From Bacilli bacterium (GTDB lineage Bacteria > Bacillota_I > Bacilli_A > RF39 > UBA660), in contig JAFZWF010000008.1 in assembly GCA_017617435.1 (NCBI GenBank), forward strand, positions 6,258-70,257: a stretch of 64,000 bases of DNA, given 5' to 3'. Under the pieces are notes generated by a model, which worked only from the letters and a program-made list of their open reading frames with translations, made no database searches and was not told the origin of the DNA. Both the position numbers and the translations under genes were made by a program. Positions 20,040 through 23,747 of the stretch are shown piece by piece. Each line of letters opens with the position of its first letter. Position 1 is the stretch's first letter.

Positions 20040-21287
20040 CTATTTAATTCCACAGTCAGACCAAATTCCAAATACGCCTAATAATAGTTTCGTAAATAAT
20101 GGAATAAAGAATAATAGTGCAAGAGCAATAAGTCTCTTGATTGTTTTATTTGAAACATTCTTTATTTCATCCTTACTATCAAATATTGCTTTAAAAAAGT
20201 CTACTGATGTTAGTACAATAACTAATACCGGTCCTAAATACTGTATGAAATTTAAAATAATTTGTAAGTAATGTGCAAATGAATCTTCATCGTTAACATC
20301 ACCAATAATATTTTTACAGTTTGTTTCTTTTCCTAAATCGTCAAGATCAATATTTTGTGAAAAATATTTTCTGAATGTTTTTGCATTATTAACTAATTCT
20401 TTTAGTTTATAATTCATTTCTGTATTGTCACTTTTTAAATTACTATCTGCTAATGCTTCACTTGCTGTTATAATTCTTGGATCAAAGTTTACAAGTAATT
20501 TAGCTAGTACATATTTTTCTGTTTTAGTTGCTTTGCTAAATGCTGCACCATCTATATTTAGTGTAAATAATTCATTTAAAGCATCAATATATTCTGGTGT
20601 TAAATATAAAGATTCTTTCATTGAGATTCCTGCTTCTAAAGCATTACTATATTTTTCATTAAGTGTATATGGGTCACCTTCAGATTCTTTTGTCATATCT
20701 TTATACCACTTATATACAGAGTGTACAGTTTCACAGTGGCCTTGGACACCATTAACAGTGTGTTGCATGGCAGTTTCATTAGCTTTTGAACACATTTCTT
20801 CAATGCCTTCTGTCTCATTAGTTAGGTATGTAAGTCCTAAATTACAAATACATATTGTTTCTGGACACATTCCTTTTTCCACAAATGATTTTTTTACATC
20901 TTTATCTGGTTCTGTGCCAACGGGATTTAACCAAGCAATATCTACTACAGAATCTCTATGCATAGAGCCATTTAAACTTGTGTACGTATAATCATAAGTT
21001 CTGTTAAACCAAAATGTTGTACCAACAGTTGCAGATAATAACTTATAGATAACATCGTAATCTATATTTCCGTATAACATTTGAGTATAACCATCATCAG
21101 TTGTCCATATGAATGTACGTGTATCTTTCTTAAATATATACAATAATTGTTGGTTTTTATAAGCATCTGATGTTGGATCTAAACTTGGATCTTTAACATA
21201 TGAACAAAGACCAACTTGTGCATTAACACTTATAATACACGAAAAGAGAATTGCAAAAATGCATAAAATATAATTAAATTTTTTCAT
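20040..21287 (-). CDS. Secreted/membrane protein with C-terminal VirB2-like two-helix hairpin module
   Basis: Signal peptide. Extracytoplasmic domain with a CSY motif shared with the 514-aa neighbour. C-terminal hairpin LGPVLVIVLTSVDFFKAIF...RLIALALLFFIPLF. Confidence 0.7.
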   Translation of the reverse strand: MKKFNYILCIFAILFSCIISVNAQVGLCSYVKDPSLDPTSDAYKNQQLLYIFKKDTRTFIWTTDDGYTQMLYGNIDYDVIYKLLSATVGTTFWFNRTYDYTYTSLNGSMHRDSVVDIAWLNPVGTEPDKDVKKSFVEKGMCPETICICNLGLTYLTNETEGIEEMCSKANETAMQHTVNGVQGHCETVHSVYKWYKDMTKESEGDPYTLNEKYSNALEAGISMKESLYLTPEYIDALNELFTLNIDGAAFSKATKTEKYVLAKLLVNFDPRIITASEALADSNLKSDNTEMNYKLKELVNNAKTFRKYFSQNIDLDDLGKETNCKNIIGDVNDEDSFAHYLQIILNFIQYLGPVLVIVLTSVDFFKAIFDSKDEIKNVSNKTIKRLIALALLFFIPLFTKLLLGVFGIWSDCGIK

Positions 21288-21303
21288 TTAATATTTCTCC
21301 TTT

Positions 21304-22848
21304 CTATTGAAGACATTTATTTTTAAATTCTTCTTTATTATCATTTATAAAATTATTAACACATTGACTGTATCCATAGCTAACTGAGTTCTTTGTACAG
21401 TATGTTCTTGCTTCTTCATAAACCCCATTAGCAATTACATCATCGCATTTGCAGTTTTTGTAATTTTTCATTACGCCTTTACGGCATTCACTTGCAGCTG
21501 TTCCATCGCTACCACAAGATTTTATTGATCTATTATATGTTGCTTGACACATACACTTCGTGTAGTAACCTTTTATATAAGTATTGTTATATACATATGA
21601 GTTATAACAATCCGTGTCATCTTTACATACACTTTTTGCCATTTCAGATAATCCATTTTTCTCGGCATTTCTACACTTTGTTTCATCATTATCATCATCT
21701 GTTGTTGGTGAACTATTTGGATTATCAGAATCGTATTCTTCTCCAGTCATTGAAGTTAAAATACTATTACATGTTTTTAAAGAATGTTCATCATCACCAA
21801 AGAAGCAAACTTTACAATTATAAAATTTATCATCTGTTGTGATCTTATTATAATCATCTAACATTCCAACAAAAACATTTATTAAACTTGGAATAAAGAA
21901 AATTGATACTCCTAATATTAACTTAACTAGTAGTTTTTGTAAGCTTTTTTGAATTGAATTACTATCTTGTGACATGAAGGCTTTAAACATTTCTATAGAT
22001 CCAAGTATTATTAAAACAAGTGGAACTATAATTTTCAAAATATTAATAAATATTCTTGTTACTCTTAATACCTTCAAAGTTCCAGCTTTAGTACATAAAT
22101 TTGCATCCTCTTCAGGATCAACTTCTATCACTGGATTTTCATCAATAGTTTTTTTAATTAGCTCAACTGCATGTTGTGATCTTTCTAAACCATATTTTGA
22201 AAAATCAGGTCCTGTTGCATCTCCACCATTAGAATTTTCACCACTATATGAAAAATCATCGCCATTTCCTGTTAAACTGCCTACCTTATATACAGTTAAT
22301 CCACTTTTCTTAAAATCATCAATGGTATCTGTTAGTGCAATATAGCTATCTGTTTTTCCACCACTAGGTGTTATTTCGTAAAGTCCTGAATAATTATAAC
22401 AGCTTTTATTATAAAGTCTATCTTTTAAAACTTTAACATCATTGTCTTCTGATACTTTAAAACCAGTTTTACCAGACATTTTATGAACTGAACCAATATG
22501 ATAGTCACTTAACGCTCCAGTTGCTTTATTATGAACAATATATACGTATGCATCATCTGAACTATTAGTAAAGCACATTATTGGAACTATAGTTTTATTA
22601 TCTGATGCAAGATTTGATACAATTGTAACGTACATTTCATTAGTTTCTTTATTTTTAAATACTACCACTCTTTTATCTTGTAAACCATCAGGTGTTAAAT
22701 ATGAACAAACATTTTCATACGAACCCTCAAGTATTTTATCTTCTTTATAAATTTTATCAATATATTCTTGATTACATGCAGCATTTGCGTAGTTAAGGAA
22801 TAAAATTCCAGCAATAAAAGTTAATAAAAATGTAAAGATTTTTTTCAT
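21304..22848 (-). CDS. Secreted/membrane protein with central VirB2-like hairpin module and Cys-rich C-terminal domain
   Basis: Signal peptide. Hairpin IIVPLVLIILGSIEMFKAFM...KLILGVSIFFIPSL at about residues 256-330. CKVC motif, then about 17 further Cys in the last 165 aa. Confidence 0.7.
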   Translation of the reverse strand: MKKIFTFLLTFIAGILFLNYANAACNQEYIDKIYKEDKILEGSYENVCSYLTPDGLQDKRVVVFKNKETNEMYVTIVSNLASDNKTIVPIMCFTNSSDDAYVYIVHNKATGALSDYHIGSVHKMSGKTGFKVSEDNDVKVLKDRLYNKSCYNYSGLYEITPSGGKTDSYIALTDTIDDFKKSGLTVYKVGSLTGNGDDFSYSGENSNGGDATGPDFSKYGLERSQHAVELIKKTIDENPVIEVDPEEDANLCTKAGTLKVLRVTRIFINILKIIVPLVLIILGSIEMFKAFMSQDSNSIQKSLQKLLVKLILGVSIFFIPSLINVFVGMLDDYNKITTDDKFYNCKVCFFGDDEHSLKTCNSILTSMTGEEYDSDNPNSSPTTDDDNDETKCRNAEKNGLSEMAKSVCKDDTDCYNSYVYNNTYIKGYYTKCMCQATYNRSIKSCGSDGTAASECRKGVMKNYKNCKCDDVIANGVYEEARTYCTKNSVSYGYSQCVNNFINDNKEEFKNKCLQ

Positions 22849-22904
22849 AATTTATACACCTACACTTATTACATAATTATAGCAAAAAAATAAGTAAAAA
22901 TAAA

Positions 22905-22936
22905 CAAAAAAACGATTAAATTATAATCGTTTTTTA
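22905..22936 (-). terminator. Rho-independent terminator after the two small hairpin-protein genes
   Basis: Hairpin acgatta-aatta-taatcgt with flanking A-run and T-run. A TTGTTT-17-TGcTATAAT promoter-like signal follows on the minus strand. Confidence 0.7.
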
Positions 22937-22956
22937 ATAGTTAATAATTAATACAA

Positions 22957-23433
22957 TTATTGACATTCCTTAGCTTTTGGGCATTCGCTACAATATTGTT
23001 TTTTTCCAAGGCCTTGACCTTGATCTTCTTTTTTAATTACAATACCTTCTCCGTCTGCACCATAGTAAGTTTGTCCTACTTTTGTACATGCTAAATCAGC
23101 TTTTTTAGTACATCCGTCTTTATCATATGGATGAACTAAGCATGACTTACAAAGATCGTAATCTTTCTTTTGTTCATCAAAATCAGATATAAGTCCAAAA
23201 ATTGCACCTATAATTGTTGGAACAAAGAATATAACTACAGCAGCAATTAGTCTTCTAATGATACTATTTGTTGCATTTTTAATTGCTTTTTCTTCTGCAG
23301 AAATAACAGCTTTACCTAAATCAATCATACCAAAGATGATTAATAATAGTGGAATAACTATTTTAAATACAAATAATATTTTACCTACTAAAGACCATAT
23401 GTCTGCTGATTCTTTACAAAATAGAATAAACAT
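22957..23433 (-). CDS. VirB2/TrbC-like pilin-type hairpin protein, paralogue A, with Cys-rich C-terminal extension
   Basis: TM1 (KILFVFKIVIPLLLIIFGMI), charged loop (DLGKAVISAEEKAIKNATNSIIRR), TM2 (LIAAVVIFFVPTIIGAIFGL), then a CKSC motif and 6 more Cys. Confidence 0.7.
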   Translation of the reverse strand: MFILFCKESADIWSLVGKILFVFKIVIPLLLIIFGMIDLGKAVISAEEKAIKNATNSIIRRLIAAVVIFFVPTIIGAIFGLISDFDEQKKDYDLCKSCLVHPYDKDGCTKKADLACTKVGQTYYGADGEGIVIKKEDQGQGLGKKQYCSECPKAKECQ

Positions 23434-23747
23434 AATTATTCACTCTTTGAAGTGTTACATTTACCACTATCATATGGATGAACTAAACACTCTTTACAGT
23501 TTTTGTAATCAGATTCACTGAATCCATCAACTAATCCAAAAATAGCTCCTACGATTGTTGGAACGAAGAAAATAACTACAGCAGCAATTAATCTTCTAAT
23601 AATTGAGTTTGTAGAATTTTTGATTGCTTTTTCTTCTGCAGAAATAACAGCCTTTCCTAAATCAATCATACCAAAAATGATAAGTAATAGTGGGATTACG
23701 ATTTTAAATACGAATAAAATCTTTCCTACTAAAGCCCAAATGTTTGC
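23188..23747 (-). repeat. Tandem gene duplication: hairpin cores of paralogues A and B
   Basis: Amino-acid identity is near-complete over about 66 residues. About 12 synonymous differences were counted by hand in one 81-nt stretch I compared. Confidence 0.85.

Follow-up and report, generated by a model that had tools for sequence, protein, structure and literature searches.

We studied a window of 64,000 nucleotides of DNA from an uncultured gut Bacilli bacterium (contig JAFZWF010000008.1), in which four consecutive genes on the minus strand encode proteins of 119, 158, 514 and 415 amino acids (aa) that share one homologous module of about 75 residues with two helices. The window is low in GC (about 27%). 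The module genes adjoin a type IV secretion system (T4SS), and the reading which we prefer, and to which we give an even chance, is that they are four paralogues built on a single VirB2-like hairpin related to the Pfam family PF18895 and that they are part of this T4SS, the small proteins as its bulk and the large ones as minor subunits displayed on the surface.

The first gene of the array (23436..23795, minus strand) codes for p119, a leaderless small module protein of 119 aa which carries the module at residues 17-89 (23529-23747), followed by CKEC (in CKECLV) and one further cysteine, four cysteines in total. The second leaderless small protein, p158 (158 aa; 22957..23433, minus strand), has its module at residues 10-82 (23188-23406), a longer cysteine-rich tail behind it and eight cysteines in total; as the modules of p119 and p158 are 93% identical, p158 is by this measure a recent tandem duplicate. 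Next comes p514 (514 aa, 20 cysteines; 21304..22848, minus strand), which we call type A. It begins with a signal peptide (about residues 1-24) and an N-terminal ectodomain (about 25-250), and the module (256-330; 21859-22083) is followed by CKVC (in CKVCFF) and a helical, cysteine-rich tail (331-514). The fourth protein, p415 (415 aa; 20040..21287, minus strand), is of type B, with a signal peptide (about residues 1-23), an N-terminal ectodomain (about 24-337) and the module at its extreme C-terminus (338-408; 20064-20276). It ends with SDCGIK and has no CxxC motif, and its gene lies 18 bp upstream of a VirB6-like gene. The exact 514- and 158-aa proteins are found on a database record from a metagenome-assembled genome (MAG) labelled 'Bacilli bacterium'.

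An earlier examination of the window, made from the letters alone and called here the sequence-only reading, had proposed these four open reading frames (ORFs) and their modules. Translation of the minus strand reproduced the ORFs and all module coordinates exactly, and the CxxC motif claimed for three of the four proteins is present as CKECLV, CKSCLV and CKVCFF. The further claim that the two large proteins have signal peptides and ectodomains sharing a C-S-Y motif also held. Both N-termini are signal-peptide-like and both contain C-S-Y, which belongs to a broader signature consisting of the signal peptide, C-x-Y and a later C-P; in 23 type-A relatives C48 and C150 are each conserved to at least 90% and Y50 is invariant. 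Beyond the signal peptide and CxY no homology between the type A and type B ectodomains was detectable, and we rejected a common origin for the two beyond these elements.

In the alignment of the four modules the positions P, I, K-A, I, L-I, F-F-x-P and G are invariant, and the modules of p514 and p415 are about 30% identical to those of p119 and p158. The sequence-only reading had named generic transmembrane (TM) composition as the trivial explanation of such a similarity. This explanation is ruled out by two results. When the sequences were shuffled while the composition of the first helix (TM1), the loop and the second helix (TM2) was held separately, 0 of 5000 shuffles reached the observed score (z = 8-14). 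A non-circular hidden Markov model (HMM), for which 119 small homologues of other metagenomes and none of the window sequences were used, recovered p119 with E 9e-53, p514 (residues 249-357) with E 1.3e-22 and p415 (residues 341-410) with E 3.8e-10, and among the 403 ORF segments of the window it gave no other match below E 0.2. Alignment, shuffles and HMM thus establish, at the level of sequence comparison, that one homologous module is reused in all four proteins.

AlphaFold2 models show this module as a two-helix hairpin, as had been proposed. In p158 the helices 5-44 and 50-82 form a long helical hairpin (predicted local distance difference test, pLDDT, 81), and in p514 the hairpin consists of the helices 255-292 and 296-329. 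The proposed topology, with both ends outside and the loop inside the cell, is strongly supported by four independent lines of evidence. Nearly all type A and type B proteins carry a signal peptide in front of the N-ectodomain. Several metagenomic relatives (P0184, P0220, P0247, P0154, P0258 and P0185) combine a leaderless N-terminal module with a C-terminal enzyme domain, the enzymes C-terminal of the module being Peptidase_M23, glucosaminidase, NlpC/P60, GDSL lipase and C39-like plus alpha/beta-hydrolase domains; since wall hydrolases must be extracellular, these fusions place the C-terminus of the module outside. Lysine and arginine are concentrated in the loop while the flanks are almost free of them. 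Conserved cysteines, finally, are found on both outer flanks of the module and nowhere in the TM helices or the loop.

These cysteines form a regular frame. In the small family four of them are invariant (C6, C95, C98 and C108), and all 119 small sequences have one cysteine 22-24 residues (22 in 113 cases) before the TM1 proline and a CxxC after TM2. Type A keeps C252, C345 and C348. Proteins with a C-terminal module have one cysteine on either side of it in 41 of 49 cases, the second one sitting in a conserved GLY-x(3-4)-CGI[KRSG] end; the corresponding C-terminus of p415 is at 20040-20063. The number of cysteines is even in all four mature window proteins. Probably a disulfide staple joins the two outer ends of the hairpin, linking the cysteine before TM1 with the CxxC...C after TM2 or, in type B, with the single C-terminal cysteine. 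T-pilin and TrbC undergo head-to-tail cyclisation, and a disulfide staple in the window family would be a parallel way of joining the ends.

At the edge of the gene cluster there is a gene for a CPBP/Rce1-like intramembrane protease (37827-38486, plus strand). The idea that the CGI[KRS] C-terminus could serve as a CAAX-type box for this neighbouring protease is loose and purely speculative, and many homologues run past the motif.

The sequence-only reading had regarded the module as a VirB2-like pilin. The closest named family is PF18895 (T4SS_pilin), for which p119 scores 23.8 bits, p158 20.5 bits and p415 14.0 bits with a gathering cut-off of 26.6; these matches span the model positions 3-71, 5-71 and 8-71 of 71 and hence the whole two-helix model. 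No PF18895 match was obtained for p514 at E up to 1. More than 300 small homologues of 108-166 aa were found, many of them with precomputed PF18895 (PF18895.6) matches, and every one of the 121 that were aligned matches PF18895 at E up to 1 (best 2.5e-8). Because the window proteins stay below the gathering cut-off while their close relatives score better, we treat the small window proteins as an outlying subfamily, that is as borderline relatives of PF18895 and not as formal members. Among the same 121 homologues weaker matches were seen to T4SS_CagC (CagC being a VirB2 model) in 21, to the Mycoplasma integrative and conjugative element (ICE) 'pilin-like' model NF045849 in 51 (best E 2.2e-4) and to the C-terminal end of NF046011 (MAG4940) in 87 (best 6e-4). 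With NF045849 p514 itself reaches 11.6 bits, below the cut-off of 40 bits. The canonical family PF04956 is not among the 25 commonest of the 106 Pfam families matched by the 121 homologues (E up to 1). For VirB5 there is no Pfam match in p514 or p415, and no VirB5/TraC-type helical homology was found. To sum up, the pilin claim stands as far as the T4SS linkage and the relationship to PF18895 are concerned, whereas homology to canonical VirB2/TrbC was not found by sequence or fold searches.

The linkage to the secretion system is evident from the genes themselves. The module array lies immediately upstream of VirB6-, VirB3- and VirB4-like genes, all of them co-directional on the minus strand. 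When species genomes were scanned, 283 of them proved to contain relatives, and the 80 best of these are MAGs from gut and rumen with labels such as Bacilli, Tenericutes, Erysipelotrichaceae and Ca. Coprovivens. Arrays of 1-8 module genes are present in at least 80 related genomes, and every module ORF in these loci is co-oriented. In the 41 loci with a VirB6-like gene the order is fixed, starting with the leaderless small protein, followed by 0-5 type A proteins and ending with a signal-peptide protein with C-terminal module, whose gene, in 39 of these loci, lies 1-60 bp ahead of VirB6; two of the related loci, L001 and L003, have the same gene order as the window. Large module proteins are present in 37 of 42 loci with T4SS genes and in 0 of 23 loci without T4SS genes within at least 6 kb (Fisher p 4e-13). 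The membership in a T4SS that had been proposed for the array is thus borne out, as the large versions occur only beside T4SS genes.

From these results we envisage the following arrangement. Each protein would be inserted with both ends outside and with a helical tip rich in lysine and arginine in the cytoplasm. As the abundant subunit, p119 and p158 could dock or assemble on the VirB6-like platform and form a short conduit or pilus, in the way proposed for PrgF of Gram-positive systems. Through the shared hairpin p514 and p415 may enter the same assembly in small numbers and display their hypervariable, disulfide-rich ectodomains on its outside or at its tip. There the large proteins might supply a contact or specificity function, comparable to VirB5 or to an adhesin by functional analogy only, and in relatives the same design would supply a tethered wall-hydrolase function of the VirB1 type. 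It seems a reasonable inference that the proteins form one heteromeric surface structure by co-assembly; the relative abundances, the docking on VirB6 and the co-polymerisation we infer.

Several observations weigh against this reading. All window proteins score below the PF18895 gathering cut-off, and the label 'pilin' rests on the Pfam name and the gene context. A profile of the 121 small homologues retrieved no pilin from the sequences of the PDB and only noise (TM5-TM6 of G-protein-coupled receptors and the Ebola nucleoprotein), a Foldseek search of the PDB with the p158 model gave 0 hits, and with hhalign the module and PrgF are related with 2% probability. The AlphaFold2 model of the p514 ectodomain is poor (pLDDT 64), and with this poor model Foldseek found no known fold below E 0.5. 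In addition, ectodomains of 230-330 aa on every subunit are hard to fit into a pilus lattice and could be accommodated only if sparse or terminal. There are also 23 related loci in which a Tad-like cluster is followed by 1-2 small module genes and no T4SS gene lies within at least 6 kb, so that the small protein may not be T4SS-specific. To the sequence and fold negatives we give little weight, because in a phmmer control VirB2 of pTi retrieved only itself from the PDB and no other solved VirB2-type pilin.

The main alternative is that the hairpin is a passive two-TM anchor or dock, possibly binding VirB6, which tethers ectodomains of T4SS accessories such as adhesins, wall hydrolases or lipases close to the channel without forming any polymer, the small proteins being anchor-only or regulatory versions. 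We think this possible, though on the whole rather unlikely. It would readily explain why the module is fused at either end to cargo as diverse as the enzymes listed above, and it agrees with the absence of any solved pilin among the matches of our searches. When 1.84 billion representatives were searched with a profile of whole type-A proteins, 7,882 metagenomic clusters matched at E up to 1e-3; this count is dominated by the module and not limited to it. Among the best 150 representatives the module was located in 131, and 109 of these 131 have an N-terminal extension of more than 60 aa, which an anchor would also explain. A mere anchor, however, does not need what the hairpin conserves. Four charged residues of the module, K23, D37, K40 and R60, each reach about 90% conservation among 258 sequences, and charged residues within the hairpin, like the flanking cysteines, go beyond the requirements of passive anchoring. 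Moreover, a leaderless version free of cargo is always present, stands first and has a separate promoter-like site, and all small homologues match a family named for pilins.

The layout of candidate expression signals likewise bears on the preferred reading of one bulk and several minor subunits. Between the gene for a 331-aa protein and p119 there is a terminator-like hairpin (23904..23935, minus strand; 13 bp, -13.7 kcal/mol, z -5.3, with a U-run). It is followed by a promoter-like site (23813..23841, minus strand; TTGACA-17-TAAAAT, near-consensus at 11 of 12 positions, a consensus match only) and, ahead of p119, by a strong ribosome-binding site, AAAGGAG. Behind p158 there is another terminator-like hairpin (22907..22935, minus strand; 12 bp, -10.3 kcal/mol, z -2.8, U7 run), and between it and p514 we found a TGnTATAAT element and an AGGTG ribosome-binding site. 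Going by these consensus matches, the genes would be laid out as is typical when a major subunit is made in abundance and the partners encoded behind it are rarer.

A Tad-like pilus cluster (24955-37670, minus strand) adjoins the module genes on their upstream side. It comprises a CpaF-type ATPase, TadB/C-like, RcpC-like and DUF5411 proteins, the 331-aa protein, a 1972-aa protein and four pilin-like genes with short leaders, two of them Flp-like (MKEATG...) and two TadE-like (MRESIG...). One could suppose that the small module proteins serve this machine and that the large ones are a T4SS-linked offshoot. Such a role would fit the 19 loci which have the Tad-like cluster and 1-2 small module genes and in which no T4SS gene lies within at least 6 kb downstream; in L005 and L007 a gap of 60 bp separates the small gene from the preceding 331-aa gene, and housekeeping genes stand behind it. 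The T4SS genes of these apparently T4SS-less genomes may, however, lie elsewhere, and eight loci have small and large module genes together with a T4SS and no Tad genes within 8 kb upstream. In the window the terminator-like hairpin and the promoter-like site part the small genes from the Tad-like operon, and the family matches are to pilin-like models of T4SSs and ICEs. We therefore consider service to the Tad-like machine improbable.

No Pfam family matches the 1972-aa protein, which stands at the head of the Tad-like cluster (31030-36948, minus strand). In L003 its last 600 aa are 99% identical, in L001 only 38%, and its counterparts elsewhere have 950-1500 aa.

On the other side of the array the T4SS genes begin with the VirB6-like gene (17265..20021, minus strand), whose polytopic product of 918 aa matches NF045848 (5.5e-10). 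It is followed by a small VirB3/TcpE-like membrane protein of 105 aa (16928..17245, minus strand), which has weak matches and a position conserved in related loci, and by a VirB4-like ATPase in two ORFs (14600..16953, minus strand), a TraC-like N-terminal ORF of 189 aa (16384-16953) and an ATPase ORF of 594 aa (14600-16384). The split is no assembly error, because VirB4 is also split in L001, L003 and L006. PF26593 (TraC-like) matches the short VirB4 ORF of related loci. The 189-aa ORF overlaps the end of the VirB3-like gene. Proteins of 715 and 240 aa come next and then a VirD4-type coupling protein of 825 aa (9132..11609, minus strand; PF02534, 1.9e-52). Together the T4SS and the Tad-like cluster occupy about 8.4-37.7 kb of the window.

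The VirB6-like protein has an N-terminal hairpin (residues about 62-116) that weakly resembles the module and carries a P-T motif in its second helix. With hhalign this hairpin and the module are related with 29% probability (P 6e-4) over 51 columns, with 0.2% for VirB3 as control, and two VirB6-like ORFs, in L033 (7671-9971) and in L085 (12445-14688), pass the module HMM outright. This is suggestive only; the VirB6-like platform could present a pilin-like template.

A comparison of the window with the related contig L003 revealed a hypervariable cassette. The positions 22809-32843 are 97.75% identical on the DNA level and 14600-19856 are 83% identical on average, whereas 19856..22809 shows no DNA similarity. 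Within this block lie p514 from behind its signal peptide onwards, p415 and the first part of the VirB6-like gene. Most L003 proteins are 99-100% identical to their window counterparts and the small module proteins 94-96%, while p514 is only 35% and p415 only 28% identical. The TM domain of the VirB6-like protein diverges together with the cassette, with 28-78% identity per block of 40 residues. Over 14 loci the median pairwise identities are 78% for VirB4, 57% for VirB3, 48% for the small module protein, 35% for the type B module, 32% for the N-terminal 400 aa of VirB6 and 18% for the type B ectodomain. These values demonstrate that the ectodomain sequences are hypervariable, and the pattern fits exposed surfaces that determine specificity and co-vary with VirB6.

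Such co-variation is also what one would expect if the large proteins were not parts of the channel and acted instead as determinants of entry exclusion or self-recognition which pair with the VirB6-like protein. Known entry-exclusion pairs are Eex-TraG in SXT/R391 and YddJ-ConG in ICEBs1. In support of such a role, p514, p415 and the VirB6-like TM domain fall together into one block that diverges between elements otherwise nearly identical, and the ectodomains and the N-terminal 400 aa of VirB6 are the fastest-evolving parts. No exclusion protein is known, however, that has a conserved hairpin in common with a pilin-like protein from its own operon, the arrays contain up to six ectodomain versions, some of which are enzymes, and exclusion of the plasmid type would have no obvious purpose in a chromosomal cluster in which no relaxase was found. 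An exclusion role is therefore, in our judgement, distinctly improbable.

In addition to the cassette, the divergent regions between L003 and the window include 12365-14512 and 26352-26600; the three regions concern the large module proteins, the 715-aa protein (41% identical) and one Flp-like pilin (61%). These contrasts look like a mosaic replacement of presumably exposed parts.

Turning back to the preferred reading of a VirB2-like assembly, parts of it are already known from other systems, namely PF18895, the pilin arrays of Patescibacteria and the PrgF-type pilins. Patescibacteria have arrays of 2-11 divergent VirB2-like genes (PMC12102498), and such pilin arrays are also reported by Wang et al. 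2023, as cited in PMC12102498 and PMC12857230. The window family resembles them in having small two-TM hairpins of the PF18895 type beside a chromosomal T4SS of monoderm type (MPF_FATA-like) without relaxase, and in the tandem arrangement of highly divergent paralogues. It differs in its host, a low-GC member of the gut and rumen Bacilli, in its array members, most of which have a signal peptide plus an ectodomain of 50-530 aa or else an enzyme domain, and in the four-cysteine frame and the fixed gene order.

The PrgF-type VirB2-like proteins have 50-150 aa and two TM helices, are encoded near virB6 and were modelled as assembling on a VirB6 pentamer; according to the authors there is almost no sequence homology within this class (bioRxiv 10.64898/2025.12.18.695078). 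Like PrgF (PrgF_B2) of pCF10, p119 is leaderless, falls within this size range and has two TM helices with a charged cytoplasmic loop. By size p158 is 8 aa over the limit, and both small genes lie within 3.8 kb of the VirB6-like gene. In contrast, there is no sequence similarity to PrgF, which has neither the cysteine frame nor paralogues with ectodomains. The same study places both VirB2 termini on the outer surface of solved pili and reports no VirB5-like tip in Gram-positive systems, in a screen limited to proteins of 50-150 aa (bioRxiv 10.64898/2025.12.18.695078).

With the canonical VirB2/TrbC proteins (VirB2 of pTi, TrbC of RP4, TrwL of R388; PF04956) the window family would share the hairpin with its ends out and loop in, here deduced from sequence features and fusions, and it shares the operon with virB3, virB4 and virB6. 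The small window proteins lack the long cleaved leader of the canonical pilins, which in turn have no ectodomains, and no match in sequence or fold to a solved VirB2, TrbC, TraA or TrwL pilin was detectable. In the Mycoplasma ICE the pilin-like NF045849 ('Mbov_0395 family pilin-like conjugal transfer protein', ICE_MMCAP2_0565) is named beside the VirB6-like NF045848 (MMCAP2_0566), as in our loci, and the module aligns to the C-terminal ~65 of the 286 residues of the model NF046011 ('MAG4940 family membrane protein'), which is a type-B-like layout. These matches are weak (best 2e-4 and 6e-4) and far below the cut-offs, and the Mycoplasma literature names these small ICE proteins VirB3-like (PMC12857230). 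A further analogy, in function only, is offered by type IV pili and type II secretion systems with their major and minor pilins and by the VirB5 tip, where a shared hydrophobic assembly segment goes along with an abundant small subunit and few subunits whose larger outer domains provide the tip or adhesion function. There is no homology to type IV pilins, which have class III signal peptides, absent here, and a single N-terminal helix instead of a two-helix hairpin.

Until 2025 the T4SSs of Gram-positive bacteria were described as lacking VirB2 and VirB5 (PMC12857230). A preprint of December 2025 argues for small VirB2-like proteins in them which form pili (bioRxiv 10.64898/2025.12.18.695078). 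Within the literature searched we found no description of VirB2-like proteins bearing ectodomains or enzymes, nor of the cysteine frame, the array order or the hypervariable cassette. The same hairpin occurs in a large uncultured lineage of the gut and rumen, where proteins as long as about 600 aa combine it with hypervariable surface domains, and searches for VirB2-like proteins that filter by size miss most of the module family. The array offers candidates for those parts of monoderm T4SSs that make contact, confer specificity and breach the wall, and it may fill in the missing surface or tip parts. It also suggests an assembly hypothesis that can be tested, in which the shared hairpin is the entry ticket to the assembly.

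In a broader form, which we advance only tentatively and hold to be possible rather than probable, the monoderm T4SS of these gut Bacilli would have a heteropolymeric conduit or pilus made of one hairpin, with a leaderless major subunit as its bulk and interchangeable minor subunits, whose adhesin-like hypervariable ectodomains or wall-degrading enzymes would stand on the outer surface or at the tip. One family would then fill the roles of VirB2, VirB5 and VirB1, the VirB6 hairpin may nucleate the assembly, and the small subunit may be a link to the Tad-like machine.

The cluster is flanked by genes for leucyl- and tyrosyl-tRNA synthetases (LeuRS, TyrRS), FtsW/RodA, a PBP5-like carboxypeptidase, RmuC and sporulation-type proteins. 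No relaxase or integrase was found by Pfam in any scanned ORF of the window, on which ground we rejected a mobile element such as an ICE or a plasmid, and a megablast search with the positions 9000-30000 gave no match to plasmids and phages. Because of the housekeeping and cell-wall genes in the flanks, and because no relaxase or integrase was found, we place the cluster on the chromosome of a host that makes peptidoglycan. The cluster has no relaxase yet still keeps its VirD4 coupling protein. Patescibacteria likewise have a chromosomal T4SS that is free of a relaxase, and there it is essential; the setting here, next to a Tad-like pilus, is parallel, and by this analogy the apparatus may serve cell-cell interaction or the exchange of DNA or protein in genome-reduced gut bacteria. 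CotZ-like spore-coat and YunB-like genes (39342-39776 and 38-718), together with FtsW/RodA and the PBP5-like protein, point to a host that has a cell wall and possibly sporulates; even so, many related MAGs bear the label 'Tenericutes' or 'Mycoplasma'.

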